A DNA stretch of 64,000 nt from a bacterium (GTDB lineage: Bacteria > Zixibacteria > MSB-5A5 > GN15 > FEB-12): the NCBI GenBank assembly GCA_016708025.1, contig JADJGQ010000003.1, positions 448,457-512,456 on the forward strand, in the 5' to 3' direction. The notes under the pieces were generated by a model. The model saw only the letters and a list, made by a program, of their open reading frames with translations, did no database searches and was not told the origin of the DNA. This document shows, piece after piece, positions 5,091-64,000 of this stretch (positions are counted from its first letter, which is position 1; each line of letters begins with the position of its first letter). A program made the position numbers and the translations under genes.

Positions 5091-7148
5091 ATGACTATGC
5101 ACATACTGCAATCAACACTCAGGCTCGCATCACTGATGCTCCTGACGATATTCCTTCTGCCGGTCCTCTCTACTGCGCAGGAGGAAGCCGAATTCGGCGT
5201 TTACCCGATGTCCGGGCCGGAGGGAATTCTCCTGGTCATCCAGGGACAACCCCTCCATCCGACCGTCGCCTCTCAGAACTCCGGTTGGGTCGGTTATCAT
5301 ATCTACCGCAAGGCAGACAGTGACACTAGTTATATCCGGATCACGTCCCAGCCGGTGTCGCGCGTCGGATCACTTGAGGAACTCGAGGCTTTTGCCGGTG
5401 GACCGATCGATGGACTGGAACGACTTGTTGGTCTCACAACCAAGCAAGAACTCTGGCAGCGGCTGGCCGCGAATGATTCGTCTGCGATGATCCTCGGCAT
5501 ATTCAGTCGCTCATTCTACGAAGCGATGGGTTTGTTGCGATGGGACCGCCTGGTCGAAAAGGGGAAAGCCTACAGCTATCGCGCTACCCGCGTCGACAAA
5601 AACGGCAAAGAATCTGAAGCCTCCGAACCGGTCAGCGCAACCTACGGCACTCCCCCCTTCTCACTGCTCGGGCCACTCGACCCGCAGATCGCAAATACCA
5701 AGAAAGGCGTCGAGTTAACTTGGCAAAGAAATCCTGACGATTCCGGCGGAATGAGCTATTCCGTATATCGCACACCGGACCTCGAGGGTTCTTTCATCCG
5801 CCTCAATCGTTACTCATTGATCCTGACTCCCGATTCCGCCACCGGCGAACCGCGCGGCACCTTTGTCGACACGACCGCCAGTCAGGGTCATGGATATTAC
5901 TATGCCGTCGTCTCAACTGACTATGCCGGCAATGAGAGCACCCGCGATAAAGTCCTTTCGATCCATGTCGCCGATCTGCTTCCTCCACCCATTCCACAGA
6001 ATGTCTTTGCTGATCCGGATGAGCTCGGAATCACGATCCGGTGGGACAAAGTCGACGATCCGGCGACTGCTGGCTACTATATCTACCGTAGTCTCGACCC
6101 TGACAGCAATTACATCAAGATCACCGAATCACTGCTTCCCTACGACACCGGGTGGTACATGGATCGCACTGCCACGGTGACCGATCGCGTTTTCTATCGT
6201 GTTTCTGCCGTCGACCAGTCCGGGAATGAGTCCGCCCCGTCCGCGCGGGCGCTCTCCCTCTACGAAAACTACGTGGTACCGCTTCCTCCGCAGGAAGTTC
6301 GGGCAATGCAGTCCGACAGCGGTGTTGTGATCTCGTGGATACGCAATGAAGAACCGGACCTGCAGGGATATTACCTCTTCCGCGCCGACAATTACGGCGG
6401 TGAACTGACTCAGATCTCCCCGTTGATCCCTCCGGACACACTCAATTATCGCGATTCATCGGACTACCTTTCCCCGCGCGGCGAATACTGGTACCTGGTG
6501 CAGGCGATCAATTTCACCGGCATCACCAGTCAGTATTCCGTACCAGTGGCGGTCAGCCCCTCCAAGGAAGAGTCTCCGGAACAGGTGCTGGCATTCTGGG
6601 GATATTATGAACCGGGCGCCGGCAGACTCTTCTGGCGTGCCCCCGATGATAATATGGTCGCGGGGTACAATCTCTATCGAACGACTACCGGGGATACCAC
6701 ACAATGGATTCTCCTCAATGCAAAGCCGCTAGACCGCACAGTCGGCGAATACCGCGACACGCTGGTCTCCCCAAATCAATTCTATCGCTATCGCATCTGC
6801 TCCGTGGATCCGAAAGGTCTTGAAGGCGACATGTCGCACATCGTCTCCTTTGTCACCTTTGAATCCGTCGCTCCACCTCCCGGAGGACTTCGTGTCGTCA
6901 GCACCGATGGCACGCCAAAACTGATCTGGAATCAGTCTCAGTTGAAGGAAATTGTCGGCTATCGCATTTACCGTCGCCAGGATAATATCGCCATGGCCAT
7001 TCATCCTCAGATGCTACCTGCCACGGCTAATGAGTATCAGGACACAACCGCCCAGCGAGGCATGAAGTACTACTACTCCATAAGCTCGGTGGACAGTTGG
7101 GGTCGCGAAAGCGAACGTAGCCCGGAGATAGAATACCTGGTTCGCTGA
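5091..7148 (+). CDS. Secreted protein with about six fibronectin type III-like domains
   Basis: N-terminal signal peptide (LASLMLLTIFLLPVLSTAQE). Six units end in the FN3-like strand motif: YSYRATRVDKNGKES, YYYAVVSTDYAGNES, FYRVSAVDQSGNES, WYLVQAINFTG, FYRYRICSVDPKGLE, YYYSISSVDSWGRES. It lies 19 nt downstream of the previous stop. Confidence 0.75.
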   Translation: MTMHILQSTLRLASLMLLTIFLLPVLSTAQEEAEFGVYPMSGPEGILLVIQGQPLHPTVASQNSGWVGYHIYRKADSDTSYIRITSQPVSRVGSLEELEAFAGGPIDGLERLVGLTTKQELWQRLAANDSSAMILGIFSRSFYEAMGLLRWDRLVEKGKAYSYRATRVDKNGKESEASEPVSATYGTPPFSLLGPLDPQIANTKKGVELTWQRNPDDSGGMSYSVYRTPDLEGSFIRLNRYSLILTPDSATGEPRGTFVDTTASQGHGYYYAVVSTDYAGNESTRDKVLSIHVADLLPPPIPQNVFADPDELGITIRWDKVDDPATAGYYIYRSLDPDSNYIKITESLLPYDTGWYMDRTATVTDRVFYRVSAVDQSGNESAPSARALSLYENYVVPLPPQEVRAMQSDSGVVISWIRNEEPDLQGYYLFRADNYGGELTQISPLIPPDTLNYRDSSDYLSPRGEYWYLVQAINFTGITSQYSVPVAVSPSKEESPEQVLAFWGYYEPGAGRLFWRAPDDNMVAGYNLYRTTTGDTTQWILLNAKPLDRTVGEYRDTLVSPNQFYRYRICSVDPKGLEGDMSHIVSFVTFESVAPPPGGLRVVSTDGTPKLIWNQSQLKEIVGYRIYRRQDNIAMAIHPQMLPATANEYQDTTAQRGMKYYYSISSVDSWGRESERSPEIEYLVR

Positions 7149-43049: not shown

Positions 43050-45351
43050 TTGACCAGGAGTGGCATCATGCGATCGATCTATGCCTTGCGGGGAACTTCC
43101 CTGGCTGGTCTGCTCATTATTGCGCTGTTCTCATCATCCCCTTCAATGGCAACATCTCTCACCGCGACAAGTTTCTCGCCGGAATTGGCGCTGAAATCCG
43201 CCACCGCTGAGATCAAAGTCGATGGCCGCATCAGTGATAGCGGATGGCAGCATGCCTCAGTGATCGATCAATTTGTGGAGATCCGACCGGGGAACAATAC
43301 CGCACCCGCAGTCGAGACCAAAGTATGGGCGACCTATGATGACCATGGCATCTATGTTGCGTTTCTCTGCAAAGATGATCCCAACAGCATTCGCTCCACT
43401 CTCTGCCAGCGCGACCAGACGACCAGCGACGACATGGTGATGATCGCCCTCGACACCTACGGCAACGGGACCTGGGCCTACGAACTGATGGTTAACCCGC
43501 ACGGGGTCCAGCGCGATCAACTCTGGTCGGTCTCTGCGCAGACCGATATCGGTTTCGATCTTGGTCTGGGAGTCCGCCGCTATGCGAACTGATTCCGGCT
43601 ATCAGGTGGAGATAGCGATCCCGTTTGCCAGCCTGCGCTTCCCCGACAGCGATCAACAATCCTGGCGGATCGACTTCCGCCGCGTTCGCCCCCGCGACAC
43701 GTACATGCAGTACGCCTGGTCGGCGGTCGATCGCAATCAGCAATGCTATCCTTGCCAGTTCGGGACGATCAGCGGAATCGAAAATGTCAATCCCGGTCGT
43801 GGGATCGAATTGCTTCCGGCGTTTGTTGGATATCGCACCGGCGAGCGTCTCTCAAGCGAATCTTTTCAGGAGCATGACCCCAAGGGCTCAATGTCACTGA
43901 CCGGTAAGTATACCACCACATCGGATATCACGATTGAGGCCGCGATCAATCCCGACTTCAGCCAGATCGAATCGGATGCCGGTCAGATCGATGTCAATTC
44001 AACTGTCGCCCTGCTCTACCCGGAGCGACGTCCCTTCTTTAATGAAGGGAGTGACATCTTCCAGACGCTCTTTAATTCATTCTATACACGCACAGTCGCC
44101 GATCCATCGTTTGCGGCCAAGATCACCGGTCGGCTACCCAAAACTCGCTTTGGACTTCTGAGCGCTGTCGATGAAAACTCTCCGTATCTCATTCCTGTCG
44201 GTGAATTCAGCCTGCCCACTTTGAACAGCGGTCGAAGCTATGTTAATGTGCTCCGTGGCACACAGACTTTGGGGAGTGGCTCTCAGATAGGGCTGATGCT
44301 GACTGACCGGCGATTCCGCCACGATGGCTCCGGCAATATCCTTTCAGGTGACTATGTCCTTCGCCTTGGGCAGAAGTATGTTATCGATGGTCAGTACCTG
44401 ATGAGCCACACGGCCGAAATGAATGAACCGACACTGACTGAGCGCTTCAACGGCATTACCTTCGATCATGGGAAATATACGGTCGATTTCGATGGCGAGT
44501 CATATTGGGGGACCGCATTCATACAGCGGATTGGACGTTACTCCGAGCACTGGAATCTGACGCTCGACTACAATCAGGTCAGTCCCAGCTATCGCACTCA
44601 CACCGGGTACGACCCCGTTAATGACCATCGAAGCAGCTCCATCTATGGTTCGGTGACAGCCCGTCCCAAGGGCGGGATCATTGAGACTTTTCAGCCCGGG
44701 GGATTTGTCTTTCGACGGTTCAACTTTGACGGCGACCGCCTGAATGAAACCAATGCCCTCAATTGCTTCGTGGGATTCCGGTTCGCGCAGTCCTCGATCT
44801 TCATGGCTTACCGCGACATATTTGAGTCTTTTGCCGGATACGACATTGACGGTCTGTATACGCTGGTTGGACAGTTCTCCGCCCGACCGCATAGTCGTCT
44901 ATCGACCTCGGTGGAGGTTTACTCCGGCACTGCCGTGACTCACTTCCTGCCCGTTCCGGAAAAGGCGAACGAATTGACGGCCGTGCTCGGCCTCAATTTC
45001 AAACCGATCGACCGGCTGACGATTGAATCAAACACAACCTATTACTCGATCTCCGATCGCGCAGCCGACACGGCATACTTTGATGGATATATCTCACGAG
45101 CGCGTATTCAGTATCAGTTCGCCAAAGAGTTGTCGATCCGACTGGTGGCTCAGTATGACGACTTTGGCCGGGTTTGGTCGGTCGATCCGCTGCTGACCTA
45201 CCGTCTCAGTCCATTCTCAGTTTTTTATGCCGGTTCAACGATGGACTATCAGGATTGGCCGGATCTCCCCAACGATCCGAATAGCCCCAGCGCATGGCGG
45301 CTGGCGCAGCGTCAATTTTTCCTGAAACTGCAGTATCTGTTTCAGGTCTAG
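43050..45351 (+). pseudogene. CBM9-like / DUF5916-type outer-membrane-associated protein interrupted by one frameshift
   Basis: IKVDGRISDSGWQHA...YDDHGIYVAFLC...DDMVMIALDTYGNGTWAYELMVNPHGVQRD ends out of frame. Frame +1 from 43561 continues VWESAAMRTDSGYQVEIAIPFASLRFP. The two ORFs together give about 770 aa. Confidence 0.7.
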
Positions 45352-48831: not shown

Positions 48832-49827
48832 ATGAGAACAACCCTGTTACTTTCCGGATTGCTGCTCGCCGCGGCGCTCACCGGATGTAGTTCCAGCGAA
48901 CAGACGGCGAATACCGCAACCGGAACCCCCAAGCCGGTCAGCGCGGTCAAAGCGGATCGTCTGACGACCGGCGCGCATGACGAGATCATGGGGACAGTCC
49001 GCGCCCGCAACACCGCCGACCTGAGCACCAAGGTTCAGGCGCGCATCGACCGGATCCCGGTAGTGATCGGCAGTCGGGTAAACAGAGGCGGCACACTGGC
49101 CGAACTGGATACCCGCGAATTCAAGGCCCGCGTTCAGCAGGCGCGCGCCGTGAAGGAGCAAGCCGATCTGGATCTGACCCGCTACACGTCGCTATTGGAC
49201 AAAGATGCCGTCACCAAGCAGGAGTTTGACGCAGTCAAGGCGCGGGCATCGGTAGCAGAAGCGAATCTCGATGAAGCCGAAGCGCTCATGAGCTACGCGA
49301 CAATCACCGCCCCCTTCTCCGGAGTCGTGACACGCAAGATGGTTGATGTCGGCGATTTGGCGATACCCGGCCAGCCGCTTTTCACTCTCGAGGAAGAATC
49401 AGCGCCGCAGTTTGTGGTCACCATTCCGGAATCACAGCGCACTAAGATCGCTATCGGCGATCAGGTGCAGGTAGAAATATCATCGCTGGACACCGCCATC
49501 ACCGGCACGGTGAAGGAGCTCTCCCCCAGCGCAGACCCGGTGACCCGGTCGTTTATCGTGAAGATCGATCTTCCAGCCTCGATCGCGCGCCCCGGCCAAT
49601 TCGGTCGGTTGCTTCTTTCTGTCGGAGGGGATGAGTCGATCTACATTCCCAGCGCGGCGCTGGTTCGTCTTAATGCGGAGAATGTCGCGGTGCTTAAGTT
49701 TGTCCGAACTGGACGTTCCCTTGGCGACAAGATCGAGATTCTTGCCGGACTGGAGAGCCACGACCTGGTCGTGACCCGTGGATTGACCGGTCTAGTCGAT
49801 GGCGACAAAGTTGAGGTCCAGCCATGA
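48832..49827 (+). CDS. RND efflux periplasmic adaptor (membrane fusion protein), lipoprotein
   Basis: ATG at 48832 after GGAAGAGG. Lipobox AALTGC. Typical hairpin and lipoyl motifs ([14 protein letters not shown]..., [10 protein letters not shown]). ATGA overlap with the permease. Confidence 0.85.
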
Positions 49828-52800
49828 GCCAGGAACATCACACAGTTCCGGCCCACGGCCTCGCTGGCATGCTGGCGAAGGGGTTCATTAATTCCAAACT
49901 GACCCCACTGCTTATTTTAACTTCAGTACTGCTTGGCGCATTTGCGGTGGCGATGCTCCCCCGCGAAGAAGAACCGCAGATCAAAGTGCCGATGGTTGAC
50001 GTCATGGTTTCGGTCCCCGGCTTCACCGCCAAGGAAGTCGAAAACCGCGTCACCGCTCCCATGGAGAAACTGATCTGGGAGATTCCCGGAGTTGAATATG
50101 TCTACTCCATCTCCCGCCCCGAAGAAGCGCTGGTGATCGTGCGTTATCTCGTCGGTGAGGATGTCGAGAAGAGCCTGGTCAAGCTGAACCAGAAACTCCA
50201 ATCGAACTTCGACAAGATCCCGCCGAATGTTTCTTTCCCACTGCTGAAGCCCCGCTCGATCGATGATGTCCCGATCCTTGCGATGACCTTCCATAGCGCG
50301 GAACTGGATCATTACTCGCTCCGGCGCGTGGTCGCCGAGGTCGAGGATCAGATCAAGCAGGTGCGCGATGTCTCAGAGACAAACATAATCGGCGGACTCC
50401 GCCGTCAATACCGGATTCAGCTCGACCCGGAAGCGCTCGCCGCGCGGCAACTTGACCCGTTACAGATCATCCCGGTGCTCCGTCAGGCAAATCGCCAGAA
50501 CAAGGCCGGGTCGCTGGTATACAACAATCAGGAAGTGGTAATCGAGACCGGCGGATTTATCCGCTCGAAAGAGGATGCCGAAAAGGTTGTCCTCGGGGTC
50601 TATAACAACTCCCCGATCTACCTTCGCGATGTCGCCAAGATCATCGATGGTCCGGAGGAGCTGAATCAGGTTGTTTTGTTTGGTTCGGGAGCCGCGATCG
50701 GCCCGCATCACGAGGAGGAAGCGGCGGTCACGCTTTCAATTGCCAAGCGTCCAGGGACCAATGCGATCCAGGTCGCCGAACATGTTCTGGAGAAAGTCCA
50801 TTTCCTCGAAGGAAAAGTGATCCCGTCGAATGTTGATATGACGATCACCCGCCACTATGGCGAAACAGCCGAAGAGAAATCGAACGAGCTGCTATTCCAT
50901 ATGATGATCGCGGTTTTTTCCGTGTCGTTGCTCATCCTGCTGGCCCTGGGATGGCGCGAATCGATCATCGTAGCGCTGGCGATACCATCAACTCTCGCGC
51001 TCACTCTTCTTGTATTTTATCTTGCCGGATTTACGCTCAATCGTATTACGCTTTTCGCGCTGATCTTCTCAATCGGTATTCTGGTGGATGATGCGATCGT
51101 GGTGGTGGAGAATATCACCAGGCACTTGCATCTTGCGCAGAACAAGGGGCGACATTGGGCGAAGATCGCGATCGATGCCGTCTCCGAGGTAGGCAATCCC
51201 ACTATCCTTGCCACCTGGGCGGTGATCGCGGCAGTGTTGCCGATGGCGTTTGTCGGCGGACTGATGGGGCCATACATGCGGCCGATCCCGATCGGCGCGA
51301 CCGCGGCAATGCTCTTCTCGCTGGTGGTCGCATTTATCGTGACGCCATGGGCGGCAGTGCGTGTACTCAAATGGGGAAAATCGAAAGAGCATATCATTCA
51401 TGATGCATCCAATGAGGATTGGTCAACGCGCGCATATCGCCGTCAGATGACCAAACTGATCACCAAGCCGAAAACCCGAATGATCTACCTGACCACTATC
51501 ACCGTGCTGTTGGTTGGAGCGATGGCGCTTGTCGGCATCGGCTGGGTGCAGGTGAAGATGCTCCCGTTCGACAACAAAAACGAATTCCAGGTTATCATTA
51601 ATATGCCGGAGGGGAGTTCGCTCGAAGAGACTGTCCAGGCCTCTCGCGAGATCGCCGGAGCAATCGCCAAAGAGTCCGAGGTAACGGATTACCAGATCTA
51701 TGCGGGGAATGCATCGCCATTCAATTTTAACGGTCTGGTGCGGCATTACTTCATGCGGCGCGGCTCTTATTCTGCGGATATCCAGGTCAACCTGGTCGGG
51801 AAGGGTGAGCGGTCTGACCAGTCGCACGATATCGCCAAGCGGGTACGCCCGCGCGTGGATGATATCGCGAAGAAGTATCGCGCGGCGGTGGCGATCGCCG
51901 AGGTACCACCCGGCCCGCCGGTCTTACAGACTCTGGTAGCGGAGATCTATGGACCGACTGATTCCACCCGCACCGCGCTTTCGCGCAAGGTCGAGGAGAT
52001 CTTCAAATCGACGCCCGGCGTGGTTGATGTTGACGCCTACGAAGAGATGGATCAGCCAAAACTGACTTTCACGATCGATCATGAAAAAGCGGCGCTCCAC
52101 GGCATCACCGCCGGAGATGATCGGCCAGTCGGTGAAACTTGCGGTCCAGCGGGATACAGGTCGACATCGGACATCGCGACAATGAGCGCGAAGATGTCGC
52201 GTTAATACTGGAACTCCCCCGCGCGCAGAAAACCTCCGCGGCGGATATTCTCGGCCTGCAGATACGGATGCCGAACACGGTTCAGTCGGCGAATGCCGCC
52301 GATGCACCGCTGGTGCCGCTGCGAGAACTGGTGACGGTAATTGATACGATTGCGGAGAAAACAATCTATCGGAAAAACCTTATGCCGGTGACATATATCA
52401 TCGGCGATGTCGCGGGTGAGATCGAGTCGCCGGTGTACGCCATCATGGATATGAACAAAAAGCTGGAGAAGCTTGAGATGATCCAGTATGGCGGGACAGA
52501 GAATAAGCTGCAGATTCTCAATGCGAGTATGCCGTTCTCCACTCTCGAGCCCGCACTTAAGTGGGATGGTGAGTGGCATATCACGATAGAGGTCTTCCGC
52601 GATCTGGGGATCGCATTCGCCGCAGTACTGATCCTGATCTATATTCTGATGGTGGGATGGTTCCAGTCGCTGTTGACGCCGATCATCGTGATGGCGGCGA
52701 TTCCGTTCTCGCTCATTGGGATCATGCCGGCGCATGGCGCGATGGGGGCGTTTTTCACGGCAACCTCGATGATCGGATTTATGGCGGGGGCGGGAATTGT

Positions 52801-53083
52801 CATACGAAACTCAATCATTCTGGTCGATTTCATTGAGCTTCGTCTAAAGGAAGGGATGCCGCTGGCGGAAGCGGTGATCGATGCCGGCGCGGTGCGGTTC
52901 CGTCCGATGTTGCTCACGGCCGGCGCAGTGATTGTCGGTGCAGGAGTGATTTTGTTCGACCCGATCTTCCAGGGTCTGGCGATCGCATTGATGGCGGGCG
53001 AGGTCGCCTCGCTGTTGATCAGCCGTGTGGCGGTCCCGATTCTGTATTATGTCGGGCATAAGAAGCAGTATCCTGTGGCGTAA
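49824..53083 (+). pseudogene. RND (AcrB/CzcA-type) inner-membrane efflux permease interrupted by frameshift(s) near 52105-52165
   Basis: The 793-aa and 314-aa ORFs are the N- and C-terminal parts of one roughly 1080-aa RND permease. No outer-membrane factor gene lies adjacent. Confidence 0.85.
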
Positions 53084-53582: not shown

Positions 53583-54795
53583 ATGGGTAATCGAACAAAG
53601 AGCGCCAATTCAGAATTTAGGCTTGCAATTACTGAACAAGATGTCTTTCGAGCTAGAATTGCTGGCGAACTTGTGAAGCGTCGTAAACGTCCGACGTTGA
53701 TAGACTTGTTCGCTGGAGCGGGGGATGACGCTCGGCTTCACCAAGGGACTCGGGCACTGTTTTGAGCCGGTGTGGGCAAATGATATTGATGAGGCTTCCG
53801 TTACAACCTACCACTTGAATTTTGACTGCCACTGTGTGTCAGGAGACCTTATAGATATTTTGGCTGCCAGGAGTTACAAGATTCCTCATGCAGACGTGGT
53901 CATTGGAGGGCCACCATGCCAAGGGTTCAGCCTGCTTAACAAGAATCGGGACGGTGATCCGAGGAAGCAACTATGGAGACCGTTTCTTGATGTAGTCAAG
54001 CACTCTAAGGCAAAGCTGTTTGTCATGGAAAACGTCCCGCAGTTGCTTGGTACACCAGAGCATACAGAGATTCTTGGTTATGCCAAGAAACTAGGTTTTC
54101 AGACCGAGTCGCGTGTATTATGCGCAGCAGACTATGGAGTATCCCAGAAGCGGTATCGCGCCTTCATTATTGGGTGTTCATTTGCAGATCCGAGGATCTC
54201 CTTCCCGCCTAAGAAATCGCATTATAACCCTTGTAATGGCAGCACTCTTGATTTATTAGAATCGAATGGTGCATTTTTGACAAATCCCCAAAAATGGAGG
54301 ACAGTCAGAGATGCAATAGCGGATCTTCCACAGCCAACAGGTACCGAAATAGCTGCAGTAGCGCCACCATTCGACCTTCATTTCGGCAGGACGCCGACTC
54401 AGAAGTCCCTTCAAAGATATCGTGCAATTCCAGAAGAAGGAATGAACAGGTTCGACCTACAACGACGCGCCCTTAAATTGACTCCAGATTGCTGGATAAG
54501 GAAGACTTCCGGCGGGACTGACCTGTTTGGGCGCTTATGGTGGGATAAACCCGCTTTAACTATTCGAACAGAATTCTTCAAGCCAGAAAAAGGTCGGTAC
54601 CTTCATCCGTGTGAACATCGGCCGATTACGCACAGGGAAGCGGCGCGCCTGCAGAGTTTTCCAGATGATTTTCTATTCCACGGTTCAAAGACTCAAATCG
54701 CAAAACAGATCGGCAACGCAGTTCCTCCAATGTTAGCTGCTCGAGTCGCAGACTGCGTTTTTTCTCTTTGGCTCTCTCAGGAACAAGCTACATGA
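53583..54795 (+). pseudogene. DNA (cytosine-5)-methyltransferase, frameshifted inside motif I
   Basis: LIDLFAGAG is followed out of frame by MTLGF; the expected sequence is FAGAGGMTLGF. Downstream motifs are intact: GGPPCQGFS, ENV (FVMENVPQL), QKRYRAF, GNAVPP. Confidence 0.85.
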
Positions 54796-55202
54796 GCGAC
54801 GTTTTTTCTAGTAAGAAGCGCAGCGAGATAATGTCGCTTGTGAAGGGGCGCGATACAACACCCGAAAGAATAGTAAGATCACTCCTTCATCGAAATGGAT
54901 ATCGCTTTTCTGTTCATCGGTCGGACCTACCCGGAAGACCCGATATAGTTCTAACAAGACATCGTACTGTTGTATTTGTAAATGGCTGTTTCTGGCATGA
55001 CCACAAAGGATGCAAAAGAGCAAGTAAACCACAAAGTAATAGATTGTTCTGGATGGAGAAAATTGAATCTACTAGGATGCGGGATCAACGGAATGGCAGA
55101 TTATTGCGAAAATTGGGTTGGCGTGTTTTGACCGTATGGGAATGTGAAACCAAGCGCGACAACTTCCTGGCATCAAAGATTCGGAATTATTTCCAACGAT
55201 AG
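54792..55202 (+). CDS. vsr: Very-short-patch repair endonuclease
   Basis: KKRSEIMSLVKGRDTTPE...GRPDIVLTRHRTVVFVNGCFWHDHKGC...WRVLTVWECE. ATGA overlap with the methyltransferase stop. Confidence 0.9.
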   Translation: MSDVFSSKKRSEIMSLVKGRDTTPERIVRSLLHRNGYRFSVHRSDLPGRPDIVLTRHRTVVFVNGCFWHDHKGCKRASKPQSNRLFWMEKIESTRMRDQRNGRLLRKLGWRVLTVWECETKRDNFLASKIRNYFQR

Positions 55203-55215
55203 GCGGACAAAAACA

Positions 55216-56154
55216 ATGCCAAGACGGACAAAATGTGAGCAACCCGAGTCCCACCGAATCGAACTAATCGACTTATTGATGAATTTTGAGGCGGAGCTCA
55301 GATCCAAAGACCTACGTCGAAAAGTCCTCTCACTAGTCGACGCATATCGATTGCTGCACAACTTAGGAAGTTCACTAATTCCAATGGAGATTGCCAAGTC
55401 GGCCAGGGATCGCATTCTTTGCTACTTTAGGAAATACCCTTCGACGATAATCGATGGAGAGGAAATCATGGTGGTTTCCGGAATTAGTGAGTGGGCAAGA
55501 AGGGTGCGAGAGCTTAGAGTTCAATTTGGATGGAGCATCATTAGTGGAATCACAGCCAAGGAGATGCTGAAAGAGGAATCTCCTCTTGTCATTAACGGCG
55601 TTGAAATCAGCGAAATGAAACCGAATCAGTATTTTCTCGCGAGCCCAGAAGAAGATCGGGAGGCTGCTAGGCGTTGGCATGTAGCCAACGACATCCGAAA
55701 GGGAAAAGGCGGCTCGAAAGAGAAAATTATTGAATTCTTCCGTCAAAACGTGGGTCAGCCAATAAGCGGAGAAGAATTACGTTACGCTGCTAATGACAAA
55801 TCAGAATGGGCCAGACGTGTGAGAGAACTCAGAACTGAAAATGGCTGGCCAATTGTTACACGCAATACCGGCAGACCAGATCTACCTGTTGGAATGTATG
55901 TGCTCGAACAGGACCGACAGAGCCCCGAACATGACAGGAACATTCCCGATTTGGTACGACGCACAGTCCTCGAACAAGCAAAGTACCGTTGTGCTAACTG
56001 CAAATGGCATCACAAGAAGTGGAATCGATCGGACCCGCGATTTCTCGAGCTTCACCACAGTGTTCCGCATTCTCACGGTGGAAAGAATGAAGCCGAGAAT
56101 CTCATTGTATTATGTAACGTCTGTCACGATCAGATTCACAAGAAACGTCGATAG
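55216..56154 (+). CDS. HNH nuclease with a duplicated N-terminal winged-helix-like module; probable restriction endonuclease of the cassette
   Basis: C-terminal CANCKW...LELHHSVPHSHGGKNEAENLIVLCNVCHDQIH (HNH). Two copies of SEWARRVRELR..GW.I lie 105 aa apart. It starts 13 nt after vsr. Confidence 0.7.
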   Translation: MPRRTKCEQPESHRIELIDLLMNFEAELRSKDLRRKVLSLVDAYRLLHNLGSSLIPMEIAKSARDRILCYFRKYPSTIIDGEEIMVVSGISEWARRVRELRVQFGWSIISGITAKEMLKEESPLVINGVEISEMKPNQYFLASPEEDREAARRWHVANDIRKGKGGSKEKIIEFFRQNVGQPISGEELRYAANDKSEWARRVRELRTENGWPIVTRNTGRPDLPVGMYVLEQDRQSPEHDRNIPDLVRRTVLEQAKYRCANCKWHHKKWNRSDPRFLELHHSVPHSHGGKNEAENLIVLCNVCHDQIHKKRR

Positions 56155-57583: not shown

Positions 57584-59657
57584 TTACGGACAATTGGGCA
57601 AGGTCGGGCGTGGTACCTGCGTCAGATAGGCTATCAAGAGCGACAGATCAGACAGGTCGATAGAGCCTGTGGTGTTGACGTTCGCTTCCGGCAGGCATGG
57701 CAGGACCGGACGCGGAACAATTGTCAGATAGCTGATGAGCAGAGAGAGATCCGACAGGTCAGGCGTTTCAATAACGCCATCGTTCACATTGCCGGTGGTG
57801 CCAACACAGCAACTGACTGTCTGGCAGGAATCGCCGACACCATCGCCATCAGAATCCTCCTGCAACGGATTGTATTTGTTGGGGCAATTGTCGCACAGAT
57901 CGCCGATCAGATCGAAATCGACATCAGACTGCGTTGGATTTGAGACAGTCGGGCAGTTGTCACAGATCGCCAACTCCATCCAGGTCGCCATCAAGCTGAG
58001 TCGGATTCGAGATGGTCGGGCAATTGTCGCAGGCATCACCAAAGGTGTCGGCATCGGTATCGAGCTGATTGTTGTTCGTTACCGCTCTGCAGTTGTCGCA
58101 GGCATCGCCAAGCGTGTCGAGATCGGAGTTGACCTGCGAGGGATTGGGCGTGAAGTCGCAATTATCGAGCGAATCGATAATGCCGTCATTGTCTGTGTCA
58201 CAGGCGAAAACATTCTCAAAGATGACATCCTGATCGACACCATTGCGGCCATCGTTCCAGACGATGCCGAAGGGATTGATCAGGTTGAAATCCGAATCGA
58301 AATAGGACCCGATGTATTGTCCCAAAGGACGCGGAATGGTGCTAACCGGTGGGAATGGACCATTGCGCGTGAGTATGCAATCCTGAAACGTAACGCCACA
58401 GTCGCGCGAGATGGATGACCAGATCTCGACGGCGTTGTTGGCCAGGTCATTGCGACGGTCGTTGTAGCTGACTATCACCGCGCCGGTGTTGCGGTCGAGA
58501 GTGATCGTCGGCGCCCATTGATCGCGTCCATTACCAACCGGGTCCTGATTGACGCGCATCGGCGGGAGGAATGATCCGGGAGCTCCGCCAGCCGGACTGA
58601 CGGTCATCCAGATATCGATATCGGTTCCGGTCGGACCGGGAGCATCCCAGACAATATAGACATAACTGGGACATCCGCCGGCAACACCTTGTCAATCGCG
58701 AGGTCAACCGTATTGGCGACTTCGATTCCCGGAGCGAGTGTGGGAGGTACAGGAAGAATTCCACCGGTAATGATTGCGGCAGGGACCATGGCGCACCGCC
58801 GGTAGGAGTCGGGTTCCAAGACATCACGATGTTACCTGCCAGAATGTCGCGCCAGATACAGTAAGTCGCGCCGGGAGGGAGAAATCCTGTTCCGGCTGGG
58901 CCGGCAAAATCGAGGGCTGGCTTATGTCCTGCAGATACGCGCCATGCGGCATGCCCGGCATGACTGGGGCGGGCCGAGAAAGTGCCGGATAGGGGAAAGG
59001 TCCGCCAAAAGCAGATTTGTGGAGGAGGACCAGATAGCGGCAAGGTCGGCAGGATCATTGTAGAAGTTCAAGTCTCCGTTGGGTCGCCATCGATGTCGGT
59101 GGATTGCACCCAGGCATAAGTAGCCTCACCCATCATTGGAACGGGGATACCAGGGACATCAACAATGGAAGAGCTGGGTAGTCGAACCATTGATTGATTG
59201 CCGGGCTGATACTGATCGGAAAAAGGTGCGGCGAACGGTGCGCCACCGCCAAGACTTCAGACATGTAGACCGCGTTTCCGATCGGCGTGAATTGCTGTCC
59301 CTGGTCCAAAGGCAGTGCCGCCCATCATGAATCCACCACCTGGAGCAGAGCCAAGTGAAGGGTTCCAGTCGCTGGATAGGGGGCGGCGCGGTCACACCCA
59401 TTGGCAGCCAGGAACCAGAAGCGCCGAAAGCCGGTGACCATGCCCAGTCAATCGTCACCGCCTGGAAAAAGGCCTGGCAAATGATTGTTGTAAAGGTGTA
59501 GATCTCTCCCGGTTTGATCTCGTTCCAGGAGACTGCTGTGTTGTTTTGTTCGGACCCGGGTGGATGTCCGGAGCCACGGGTGAGTTAGCCATGACACTGA
59601 ACCCAGGAAGCAGATGATCGCGGCAACTCTGCTGAATGAGAGAATCAGGCGAACCAT
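57584..59657 (-). pseudogene. Secreted BNR/sialidase-like protein with thrombospondin type 3 repeats and a twin dockerin-like C-terminal tail, broken by at least five frame changes
   Basis: Recognisable pieces lie in all three minus frames. They are a signal peptide (MVRLILSFSRVAAIICFLGSVS), [13 protein letters not shown] (BNR), repeated D.D.D..GD.CDNCP..(S/Y)NP.Q, and [12 protein letters not shown]...[13 protein letters not shown]...[14 protein letters not shown]. Confidence 0.7.
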
Positions 59658-59941: not shown

Positions 59942-60834
59942 TCAACTAACAGAACCTGACTTACTCTTGTTCGGGAGTTGGATACCCGACAGGGCTAAGC
60001 CGATGACAATACATGCGCCGCCGATGCCACTGTGCATGGTGAACTGCTCTCCCAACTGTCCAGGCCGCCGCCGCCGCTCGAATACCGGCTCCAGTGCAAA
60101 GATAAGTGACACACGGAGTGGTGACGTGGCGCTGAGCAAACATCTGGATGACAAAAGGCAGAAAGTGTCGGAAAGAGGGCGAGAAAAATGATCGCACTCC
60201 AGGCAGCATTGGTGGTGACATCGAAAGAGCGCCCGGTGATTGCGGTCATGGCAATACTGCCCAGGCCAACCAATAGAAACTGCTGACAACTGATGGCGAT
60301 AGGATCGACACCCGCCTTGATGTACTTATCGGAAAGCAACAAGTGCAGGGCGTAGGCCATCGAAGCGACGATCGTCAGCAGGTCGCCGATGTTGACTTCT
60401 TTCAGGCCGCCGGTGAGTATCCAAAGACCGACCAGCGATATGACCGAGGCGATGATCTCCATCAAAGTGGGGCGACGCCTGAAGAGGGTCACGAGAAAAA
60501 CCGGCACCCAGAGAACAAACAGGCCGGTGATAAAGCCGGAGTTTGAGGCGGTGGTGTAATTCAGACCGACTGTCTGCGTGACATAAAGTGTCCAAAGAAC
60601 AACGGCAAGAAAGAGACCTTGGCGAATATTCGGGAGAACCGGTTTACGTTTGATCAGGAGATAGCCCAACAACAGGCCACCGGCGATCAGAAAACGATAG
60701 CCGACCATAGTCACGGCATCGACGCCGGTCAGCGCTGATTTGACAATGACAAAGGTCGTTCCCCAGATAAGGGCGGCATAGAATAGTCCGGTGTCGGACC
60801 AAAACTGTAGTCGTCGAGAGGGGGATTGATTCAT
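59942..60834 (-). pseudogene. EamA/DMT-family transporter with several frame changes in its last 250 bp or so
   Basis: The sequence is intact through ...IIFLALFPTLSAF. The expected continuation (..VIQMFAQRHV.., SLIFALEPVF, AAAAAW, LGEQFTMHSGIGGACIVIGLAL) is then scattered over three frames. Confidence 0.8.
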
Positions 60835-60868: not shown

Positions 60869-61246
60869 CTACCGTGGTTTCCTGCGTGGGATCTTTTGGT
60901 TGAAGGCGCAGATTTCTTCTTCATGGAGCCACGGCGATTTTGGCTGCCATTGGAATTTCAGGTCAATACGGTCGCGGAAACCCAAAGTAGATCCCTTCGC
61001 TTTCGAGTAGACTGTGCTGGACTTCGTACCCTTCACCCGGCGGAGCGAGATCTTCCCTTCGCGATTAATAACGCGGAACCAGGGGAGTTTCTCGGATTCG
61101 GAGCAGCCATGTAGCACCCACCCGACAGACCGTGGGTCACGAGGATTGCCGGCCATTGCGGCGACCTGACCGTAGGTAGCAACCTTTCCGCGCGGGATCT
61201 TGCGGATCACCTGACAGATCGCTTTGACGACAGGAGATTTCGTCAC
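60869..61246 (-). CDS. Alkyltransferase-like (ATL/YbaZ-type) MGMT-family DNA-binding protein
   Basis: IPRGKVATYGQVAAMAGNPRDPRSVG...LPWFRVINREGKISL, with Trp in place of the MGMT active-site Cys. GTG start overlapping the upstream stop (GTGA). Confidence 0.75.
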   Translation of the reverse strand: MTKSPVVKAICQVIRKIPRGKVATYGQVAAMAGNPRDPRSVGWVLHGCSESEKLPWFRVINREGKISLRRVKGTKSSTVYSKAKGSTLGFRDRIDLKFQWQPKSPWLHEEEICAFNQKIPRRKPR

Positions 61247-62073
61247 CGCGATTTCTCTGTCAGATCGGTTGAAATGATCGGCGCGTAGATATCGGGGCGA
61301 CGGTCTACGAACAGATCGTTGCGGGGGTTGACCGCTTTGTCGCGCGACTCTCTCGGATCGATATCAACGGTGATCACCGCTTCTTCCCTCTCGGACCGGT
61401 GACAATGACATTTCCGCGGACATCGCAGACGACCGAAAGGCCGGTGAAGTTGAGGCCTCCTTCGGAACCGATCCGGTTGGCGGTCACGACCGCAACTCTG
61501 TTTGTCATGGCATGTATAGGTACAGCGCGCTGACATTTGCCTGGAATGACCAGATTGGCAGGATGGCAAATGATATCCGCGCCTTTGAGGGCAAGCAGGC
61601 GCCAGACTTCGCCAAACCACCAGTCGAAACAGATCAACATGCCGATGCGGACGCCATTCACCTCAAAGACGGGCGCGCCGAGATTGCCGGGCTGGAAAAA
61701 TCTTTTCGTTCAAATAGAGATGAAGTTTGCGATACTTGCCTATGACACCATCGCGAGTGAGCAGGATCGACGAGTTGTAGAGCTGTTTTCCATCGCGCTC
61801 GTTAAGGCCACTGACGATCGTGCAGTTATGCTGTCTGCAGAATGCATGGAGATAGCCGGTGAATGGGCCATCGATGACGGATTCAGAACTTGCCCACGCC
61901 TGTTCCTGCGAAGTGAAGTTGTATCCTGAATTGCAGAGTTCCGGCAGGACGACCAGATCTGAGCCGATCGCCTGAGGCATGAGACGGTCCAGGCTTTGCA
62001 GGGTGGCTTGCAGGTCGGCCAAAGCCGGTGCAAACTGAATGATAGTGATCCTCACAAGTATGCCCTCACGCAT
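61243..62073 (-). pseudogene. Carbon-nitrogen hydrolase (nitrilase superfamily) with two frameshifts
   Basis: LVVLPELCNSGY...KLHLYLNEK in frame 1. (NLGAPVFEVN)GVRIGMLICFDWWF...VTANRIGSEGGLNFTGLSVV in frame 2. EEAVITVDIDPRE...DRRPDIY in frame 3. Confidence 0.8.
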
Positions 62074-62243
62074 GGGGTGGTGCAGTTTCGACAGGCCCGA
62101 CTGGACTCAATGTCAGGTCGGTTTGGGCGTGAGGCAACCACTTTTTCGAAAGCCAAAATTGGACAAGTTTACCCACAACAAGTGACCCGGGGCTATGCGT
62201 ACCTAACAGGTGGCCCTGGTACGCAACCCGCAAGACACCTGGA

Positions 62244-64000
62244 GTGACCATGACTCGAATATTGATGGCAATTGCGTTGATCTCTCTGACCCTTCTCCCC
62301 CTTGAACTGACCTGGACCCGCATTTTCTCAGCAGAATTCTTCTATACCTTTGCGTTTCTTGTTCTTTCGCTGGCGATCCTGGGACTTGGATTGGGTGGTC
62401 TGATGTTGCGACTATGCAAGGCGGCGGATCGCGATCTGCTGTTAAGTCCTTATCTGGCAATCTCAGGGCTCTGCGCGCTGGTGGGGCCGATGCTGGTATT
62501 TCAATTGGGCCTCGATTTCTCGGCCCTCTTCGCCAGTATGGCAATGGTGGGAAAACTGCTGGTGACGGTTCTGATTCTGATGTCCGCGTTCTTTTTTGGC
62601 GGCATGGGGCTGGCCATGATCTTCAAGCGCCGTTCCGCAGAGATGCCCCACCTTTATATGGCAGATTTGATAGGCGCAGGGCTGGGACTGTTGGTTGGAC
62701 TCTGGGGAATGAATCAATTCGGCACTCCGGTCGCATCGGTACTGGTAGCCCTGCCTATTCTGATGGCCTCGTTTCTGCTTGCCGCCGGATGGATCCGGAT
62801 TCTCCCGGTAGTGTTGCGGTGGCGGTCTTTATCGTAGCTCCGGGGGGCGAACGGCGTCCCTCAACGGCCCCTCGACGGGAACATGCGCAGTGATCTACAC
62901 GCACTGGGATGCCGTCTCTAAATTGAAAATGTACGACTATGGTCCGGACTATCGCGGATTGAATATAGATAATGTCGCCAATTCGCCGGTAAATCGAGTC
63001 GACGGAAAATGGGAAGATATCAATCCTGATTCCGGTTGAGTGGGGATCGATGTCTCCTATTTGATACAGCAGTTTGATTCCTGCAGATTCCTTTCGCTGG
63101 GATCCGGCGGCGGCGGTGATGTTTTGCAGGCATTGGTGGAAGGTGCGACTGAGGTTCACGCGGTTGAGGTCAACCCGCACATCAACTGGATGATGCTGAA
63201 TGATGACACGACCGGTTACCACAAGGCGCCGTTCGTCCCCGATAGCAGTTGGAGCGTGGCACAGGTTGATTCAGCCAGAGCGGTGTATGATACGACACGG
63301 ATGCTTTTTCGGTTGCGGAGTTGCCGGGAATCTCTATCGCGATCCACGGTGACTGTTAGTAACCGAAGATGCGCGCTCATATGTCCGGAAATTCGGGGTA
63401 AAAAAAAAAAAAAAAGAAAAAGTTTGAGTGTCATCTACTCGCTCAGTTCGAATAGCTGGGCGGCTCTGGCATCAGGCGCGTTTGCCCTGGCAAAGAACTA
63501 TCTCTTACGACCGGGGCATTCGAGGATTTACTGGGAGGCTTTCCGACAGCGGCTTCCTGATGATGGAACATCAGGTATACACGCCGAGATTGGTATCAGA
63601 GGCATTGGCCGCGCTGGAGAACAGAGGTGCTCTCGGCGGAGCAAGCGGCATCTCTGACCCGTCGCGGCATATCGCGGTGTATGACTTGCCAAAATGCGGC
63701 GAAGATATTGCTTCTCTCGAAACGGCCGTTGACCGATTCACTTCGCTACTATGCGCTCCGGGCCGCTTACTCCGGAACGATTCGGCCAGATCCATCTGTT
63801 GTATCCTCCAGCGAACGAGTCATTGGCGAATAATCAAATCGCGCGGATCGTTAACGATGGCTGGCGAAAGCGCAGTTCACGAAGATAGATCTCTCCCCGT
63901 CTCCGACAACCGACCGTTTGTCGCGCAACTCGGGCTCTGGCGCAATTTGACCTCGGAGAATATGCAGAAGGTTTCAACTATGCCCGGAATTCTCCGGCTT
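62244..64000 (+). pseudogene. Spermidine-synthase-like membrane protein (multi-TM N-terminus plus methyltransferase fold), several frame changes, runs off the 3' edge
   Basis: TM region LELTWTRIFSAEFFYTFAFLVLSLAILGLGLGG. Then IYTHWDAVSKL, LSLGSGGGGDVLQALVEGATEVHAVEVNP, SWAALASGAFALAKNYL and ...DNRPFVAQLGLW appear in different frames. Confidence 0.65.
63400..63421. repeat. Homopolymer A16-G-A5
   Basis: Read directly: sixteen A (63400-63415), G (63416), five A (63417-63421), inside the spermidine-synthase-like gene. Confidence 0.95.

Follow-up and report, generated by a model that had tools for sequence, protein, structure and literature searches.

Introduction

The pairing of a DNA methylase with a very-short-patch repair endonuclease has its paradigm in the Dcm-Vsr couple of Escherichia coli, and vsr genes linked to restriction-modification (R-M) systems have been named. 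The role of Vsr is to repair the T:G mismatches that arise when 5-methylcytosine (m5C) deaminates. McrA, a 5-methylcytosine-specific enzyme of E. coli, has an HNH core. In Helicobacter, Campylobacter, Neisseria and Haemophilus, the phase-variable methyltransferases of phasevarions carry tracts of poly-G or of short repeats. Some C5 methyltransferases are naturally split, among them M.AquI with its alpha and beta subunits; the boundary then lies in the variable region that separates motif VIII from motif IX, and each part folds.

The locus described here lies in a window of 64,000 nucleotides, by which we mean the whole stretch of DNA that was analysed. It contains a C5 cytosine methyltransferase gene (M) whose open reading frame (ORF) is interrupted, followed by genes for Vsr and for an HNH nuclease:

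53583..54795, + strand: C5 cytosine DNA methyltransferase gene (M), 2 nt short of a single 404-codon ORF
53583..53765, + strand: ORF of the N-terminal M fragment, 60 aa, with the conserved N-terminal extension and LIDLFAGAG
53720..53724, + strand: G5 run at the frame break, between Gly codons 1 and 2 of motif I (GxGG)
53725..54795, + strand: C-terminal M ORF, 356 aa, from MTLGF through motifs IV, VI, VIII and X
54792..55202, + strand: vsr (very-short-patch repair endonuclease), matching PF03852 and TIGR00632, free of frame events
55216..56154, + strand: HNH nuclease gene, 312 aa, PF01844, presumed restriction partner, 0 frame events

The locus resembles a type II m5C R-M system with a linked vsr in having motifs I, IV, VI, VIII and X, a vsr gene overlapping the end of M, and a nuclease gene immediately downstream. 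It departs from such systems in that the nuclease is an HNH protein of ~310 aa with a repeated N-terminal module instead of a PD-(D/E)xK enzyme, and in that the frame of M is interrupted. As in phase-variable methyltransferases, a homopolymer inside the ORF coincides with the frame change, but the tract is only 5 nt long, its counterparts in relatives have 2-4, and two nucleotides must be added for the motif to be restored. As in M.AquI, two ORFs together span one C5 methyltransferase, but here the split falls within the AdoMet-binding loop, the first ORF ends with 13 out-of-frame residues, and the 120 closest relatives are single chains. McrA (structure 6ghc) shares with the nuclease the CxxC...HH...N...CxxCH beta-beta-alpha-Me core; the match is restricted to this core of ~65 residues, the N-terminal 245 residues of the HNH protein are unrelated, and its genomic coupling to a methylase and Vsr runs opposite to expectation for an enzyme that is methyl-directed. 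If the break in M were real, it would raise a small puzzle, since the cell would have to tolerate a restriction nuclease in the absence of the methylase that protects against it. The evidence presented below indicates that this puzzle stems from the quality of the sequence.

The Methyltransferase Gene and the Break in Motif I

A preliminary description had placed a break in motif I of M at a G5 run, and this is confirmed: the frame changes at 53720-53724, between the ORFs 53583..53765 and 53725..54795. The DNA at this point reads TTC GCT GGA GCG GGG G, directly followed by ATG ACG CTC GGC TTC. After LIDLFAGAG, the 60-aa fragment continues for 13 residues out of frame and then stops; its last residues, written as ...LIDLFAGAGDDARLHQGTRALF or as ...RKRPTLIDLFAGAGDDARLHQGTRALF, are followed by the stop codon. 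The 356-aa ORF begins with MTLGFTKGLGH at 53725. When the methylase of the orthologous locus L001 is used as a tblastn query, its residues 1-47 align to 53583-53723 in frame 3. Both of the repairs put forward earlier are reproduced: removing one nucleotide gives FAGAGMTLGF, and adding two gives FAGAGGMTLGF within a protein of 404 aa.

Profile searches place the protein within the C5 methyltransferases. Even unrepaired, the 356-aa ORF scores 177 bits against PF00145 (cutoff 22), over profile positions 15-320. The score rises to 189.5 bits when one nucleotide is removed and to 199.8 bits when two are added, with the latter match starting at profile position 3; this +2 version also scores 176.8 bits against TIGR00675 (cutoff 100.65). 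As sequenced, motif I (F-x-G-x-G-G) is out of frame with the rest of M, and only the addition of two nucleotides brings it into frame. The later motifs PCQ, ENV, QxRxR and GNAVPP, which had been described as intact, are indeed all present, within motifs IV (GGPPCQGFS, with the catalytic Cys), VI (MENVPQ), VIII (QKRYRAF) and X (IGNAVPP) of the 356-aa ORF. The 120 best homologs, which are 64-76% identical, mostly ~390-440 aa long and share the N-terminal extension, all carry G-x-G-G-[ML]-[TS]-[LV]-G-F in a single frame (119 with L, one with V). Since the GxGG form occurs in every one of them, M is 2 nt short of the state of its family. The best match in protein databases, P0001, is an intact protein of 403 aa that is 76% identical over 100% of the repaired M, and the nearest solved structure is M.HaeIII (1dct, E 3.9e-30).

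Apart from the break, the gene looks healthy. Frameshift-aware alignment reveals a single frame event, and the repaired protein deviates at 1 of the 180 columns with a conservation of 95% or more (the mean for homologs is 1.85) and at none of the 103 invariant ones. The idea of pseudogene decay was rejected on these counts and on the dN/dS values given below. A GGAG sequence lies 6 nt 5' of the ATG at 53725 (window positions 53715-53727). Translation of the 356-aa fragment would thus still be possible with a genuine break, although the missing AdoMet-binding loop should leave the product inactive.

Vsr, the HNH Nuclease and Their Cassette

The ATG of vsr (54792) overlaps the stop codon of M (ATGA). 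The preliminary description considered both downstream ORFs intact, and the profiles agree. Vsr matches TIGR00632 over its full length, with 137.7 bits where the cutoff is 97.85, and residues 3-122 can be aligned with the E. coli Vsr structure 1cw0 (E 8.8e-28). The 312-aa HNH protein has a complete CxxC...HH...N...CxxCH core at its C-terminal end, deviates at 0 of 55 family-invariant columns, and is 93% identical to its ortholog P0121, its best match in the protein databases. Residues 246-310 align with the HNH core of McrA (E 2.4e-7), and PADLOC models for type II and methyl-directed type IV nucleases score almost alike (REase_II 1.4e-8 vs. mREase_IV 1.2e-8). Judged by these matches, the core appears to resemble McrA as much as it does type II enzymes. 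The N-terminal part of the protein contains a tandem repeat, at residues ~89-110 (...SEWARRVRELRvqfGWsI...) and ~195-216 (...SEWARRVRELRTENGWPI...), which is probably a duplicated DNA-binding module.

The nuclease belongs to a family with 3,292 matches at E<=1e-10, proteins of ~310 aa that are 60-65% identical and are almost all unnamed or labelled as hypothetical or HNH endonuclease. One of them, P0234, is a Vsr-HNH fusion. A scan of GTDB genomes for the HNH protein recovered three sequences, the 93% ortholog and two relatives with ~60% identity, and a metagenome scan recovered one locus, at 59%. Look-ups of the exact HNH, Vsr, 356-aa M and CarA sequences matched no entry in the public collections. 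The cassette, flanked on one side by an RND efflux operon and on the other by a gene for a hypothetical protein, would be a three-gene type II-like R-M system made up of a C5 methyltransferase, Vsr and a putative restriction nuclease of the HNH type. In unrelated genomes, the genes for M and the nuclease lie side by side and are inherited together: the M-Vsr-HNH order recurs with different flanks in four unrelated contexts (L001, L008, L009/L010 and L011/L012), and at least nine matches to M and HNH apparently come from common contigs. The persistence of this order argues that methyltransferase and nuclease are a cognate pair.

The cassette also forms an island of lower GC content, 0.46-0.47 over positions 54000-56000 as against ~0.55 in the flanks. 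In L008, it lies on a 5.99-Mb chromosome and adjoins a DDE transposase (5314-6405). The low GC content and the transposase neighbor are consistent with horizontal mobility. One literature search for a described system combining Vsr, an HNH nuclease and an m5C methylase turned up only a general review of homing endonucleases. M-Vsr-HNH is a widespread, mobile and experimentally uncharacterized type II-like cassette, and it is this cassette alone that constitutes the mildly useful biology of the locus.

Frame Breaks in the Neighboring Genes

P0001, the closest intact methylase, comes from a metagenome-assembled genome (MAG) of an uncultured member of the Ignavibacteriales, GCA_964503315.1, where its gene lies on a contig of 239 kb. 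The order of genes on this contig (MarR, MFP, AcrB, M, Vsr, HNH, a 343-aa hypothetical protein, TSP_3 and EamA) is syntenic with the window. In the MAG (loci L001 and L004), every gene is intact, including AcrB (1085 aa), M (403), HNH (312), TSP_3 (743), EamA (301 aa), the carbon-nitrogen hydrolase (270 aa) and an 823-aa protein. Intact M is present in three assemblies, the MAG itself and two Logan assemblies with identical sequence. All intact L001/L004 orthologs served as rulers for a custom frameshift-aware protein-to-DNA aligner. The resulting tally of frame events leaves out gene ends, namely the C-terminus of SSF (48247), the start of MarR (48810) and an N-terminal event in the 823-aa protein.

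Between 52.1 and 64 kb, this alignment finds 39 frame events, 38 of them outside M, and the tally has none between 45 and 52 kb. The preliminary description had not mentioned that about 40 breaks, including the one in M, fall within these 12 kb. The affected neighbors are as follows:

49824..53083, + strand: AcrB-family RND pump gene, two separate +1 insertions, at ~52113 and ~52147
57587..59657, - strand: TSP_3-repeat protein gene, 15 frame events, at 57965 and 58689-59614
59942..60834, - strand: EamA transporter gene, 5 frame events at the 3' end, 59953-60156
61243..62073, - strand: carbon-nitrogen hydrolase gene in three pieces, 2 events, at ~61390 and ~61701
62180..64000, + strand: ortholog of the 823-aa protein, ~15 frame events (14 counted, at 62812-63901, and 1 at the N-terminal end)

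The remaining genes are clean: there are no events in p436, MFP, Vsr or HNH and none inside the 343-aa hypothetical gene, while SSF has one near its C-terminus. In the AcrB gene, the insertions (GCC-G-GAG and GGT-C-CAG) are 33 nt apart, and the intervening stretch of 11 codons is conserved in a third frame. Its two ORFs match Pfam ACR_tran at positions 12-734 and 755-1019, and the identity to the intact 1085-aa ortholog is 93-95% (93.5% in the frameshift-aware alignment, with its 2 events). The carbon-nitrogen hydrolase shows a similar division, with Pfam CN_hydrolase positions 1-126 and 141-238 on separate ORFs. After correction, the TSP_3 protein is 80.9% identical to the intact 743-aa ortholog and has 0 stops. 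The conserved 823-aa gene also contains a GGGTA16 insertion of ~19 nt (~63397-63415, the A16 run being 63400-63415) that is absent from the ortholog and that looks like a homopolymer or consensus artefact.

The events are densest in two tracts, 58.7-60.2 kb and 62.8-63.9 kb. The two shift classes are about equally represented, with 18 and 21 of the 39 events, and there is a moderate enrichment at homopolymers: 18% have a run of at least 4 within 3 nt (background 5%), and 10% a run of at least 5 (background 1%). Such even shift classes and homopolymer enrichment fit the consensus errors of what was presumably a noisy or poorly polished assembly. A reference-free measure gives the same picture: ORFs of 200 aa or more cover a fraction of 0.85-1.0 of the bases in most of the first 52 kb, compared with 0.54-0.76 in the region 52-64 kb.

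Decay or Artefact

Once their frames are corrected, the scrambled genes retain 78-86% identity to their orthologs and have 0-1 in-frame stops. Ratios of nonsynonymous to synonymous substitution (dN/dS) were calculated by the Nei-Gojobori method on the frame-corrected codons. The ratio is 0.062 in the TSP_3 protein (residues 1-330) and 0.055 in the 823-aa protein (residues 217-580), and each of these segments spans 14 events. Values for the heavily scrambled neighbors are 0.055-0.076, and those for scrambled genes overall are about 0.05-0.14, compared with 0.04-0.14 for clean genes and 0.076-0.106 for the clean halves of the TSP_3 and 823-aa genes. Fourteen neutral indels within 1 kb should bring with them many neutral substitutions and some nonsense codons. 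Because these accompanying substitutions are absent, the indels in the neighbors are not evolutionary. On this evidence, the scrambled genes are under full purifying selection and have at no time evolved as pseudogenes. Thus many breaks fall in conserved neighbors whose corrected translations remain conserved, and neither M nor these genes carry marks of evolutionary decay.

M is located in a sparse stretch, 52.0-58.6 kb, with 4 events in 6.6 kb. At this rate, the background by itself would put ~0.7 events in a gene of 1.2 kb. A break in M and none in vsr, HNH or the 343-aa hypothetical gene is what such a background predicts.

Interpretation of the Break

We consider that the break in M is an indel error in the consensus of the assembly, with a probability of roughly 0.8 as judged from the sequence, because about 40 similar breaks occur in conserved genes of the same 12 kb. 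In the organism, M would most likely be one ORF of ~404 codons reading GCG GGG GGN ATG (FAGAGGMTLGF), with a true G tract two bases longer than the assembled one. The 2-nt deficit would then be one instance of a process that has scrambled at least five conserved neighbor genes over the final 12 kb of the window. The cause would be technical, either a low-coverage or unpolished long-read consensus or a collapsed mixture of strains. The lethal paradox of an orphan nuclease is then most likely absent from the organism. Some observations weigh against an error: the deficit in M is 2 nt while most of the other events are compatible with single-base errors, the region 53.7-57.9 kb (M, vsr, HNH and the hypothetical gene) is otherwise clean and puts M in the sparse part, and the methylase genes of R-M systems do get inactivated in nature.

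The preliminary description had offered a homopolymer sequencing error and a phase-variable tract among its explanations. The 38 further breaks and the purifying selection favor the former, and the latter finds no support in the G5 length, the need for +2 and the runs of 2-4 in relatives. Between these stands a genuine and very recent 2-nt deletion that inactivated M, which we regard as unlikely. The cell could have survived it if the HNH protein were weakly expressed or, in line with the remaining alternatives of the preliminary description, if this protein were inactive or not a classical methylation-sensitive type II enzyme, or if another methylase covered its sites. The break is after all present in the sequence, M lies where indels are sparse, and a clean stretch of 4 kb follows it. 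The nearness of the HNH core to methyl-directed McrA as much as to type II enzymes also makes the lethality of an orphan nuclease uncertain, and the body of M has a history different from that of the HNH gene, so the cassette is evolutionarily dynamic. However, M has no second lesion and no relaxed constraint (1/180 conserved columns), the local rate of artefacts alone already predicts ~0.7 events in it, and AcrB, only 1.6 kb upstream, has two breaks that are clearly non-evolutionary. The tight conservation of the M-Vsr-HNH cassette further implies that the nuclease depends on M. It is improbable that the window has captured the cassette just after a real 2-nt loss knocked out M in its AdoMet loop and left the HNH gene intact. 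Were this the case, the HNH family, with more than 3,000 members, would be non-lethal without its methylase, for instance because it is methyl-directed like McrA or needs an activating signal.

Two further explanations would keep M functional at least part of the time. The G tract could be a contingency locus at which slipped-strand mispairing switches M on and off, as part of an R-M system or a phasevarion. The break does coincide with a homopolymer in a coding region, and other bacteria do have phase-variable methyltransferases that carry poly-G tracts, but known hypermutable tracts are typically at least 7-8 nt long, far longer than G5. Runs of this kind are also ordinary here, with 60 G/C runs of at least 5 in the 64 kb (none of at least 7) and about one G5 run per kb. 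An ON state would need +2, and -1 removes the second Gly common to 120/120 homologs. In addition, the corresponding G runs do not exceed 2-4 in the ortholog and three further cassettes (GGC GCT GGC GGA ATG, without a G run, in the ortholog; runs of 3-4 in the other three), and a cell with M off beside an active cognate nuclease would destroy itself. The site thus offers neither a hypermutable tract nor a conserved one that toggles the frame by one unit, and phase variation is very improbable. A full-length M might also be produced by programmed recoding, through +1 ribosomal frameshifting on GGG-G or transcriptional slippage. Here, a tRNA-Gly slipping by +1 from GGG (53721-53723) to GGG (53722-53724) would find a perfect match again, and reading would go on with ATG ACG. 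Yet the product, FAGAG-MTLGF, lacks the Gly found in 120/120 homologs, the gene is one ORF in all relatives, with no slippery tract, and none shares the site, and with ~40 other frame breaks nearby a special mechanism is unnecessary. Programmed frameshifting was rejected on account of the lost Gly and of the absence of the site from relatives, and we give recoding next to no credence.

The region 52-64 kb must be regarded as unreliable for any inference that depends on reading frame, and calls of pseudogenes, split genes or phase-variable tracts within it are suspect.

Frame Errors and Divergence Elsewhere

One further split lies outside this region. At ~43561-43592, a CBM9/DUF5916 protein appears to be divided between two ORFs, 43050-43592 and 43561-45351. 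If one base near 43577 is skipped, the result is a 766-aa protein in which the CBM9_1 score rises from 22.5 to 38.2 bits and the match spans the junction. The split at ~43.57 kb appears to be a sporadic frame error in an otherwise clean part of the window. The ORF overlaps at 25.9, 39.4 and 40.6 kb were considered as splits and rejected, as they are distinct intact genes (CarA, DsrC, AhpC and Fur).

The comparison of 53583-56154 with L001 (6001-8572) also reveals a mosaic of divergence. In M and the 5' half of vsr, nucleotide identity is 61-73%, 70% of the 4-fold sites are different, and the M protein is 76% identical. From ~54,950 through HNH, nucleotide identity is 80-96%, 33% of the 4-fold sites are different, and the HNH protein is 93% identical. 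Nucleotide identity to the ortholog falls right after motif I, and the frameshift was examined as a possible recombination junction. This was rejected because the N-terminal 46 codons (69.6% at the protein level) are as divergent as the body of M, and because the sole sharp boundary is at ~54,950, inside vsr. The chromosomal genes that flank the cassette have a divergence intermediate between those of the M and HNH parts. The pattern suggests that either M and the 5' part of vsr underwent allelic replacement within the cassette, or the HNH half was recently exchanged.
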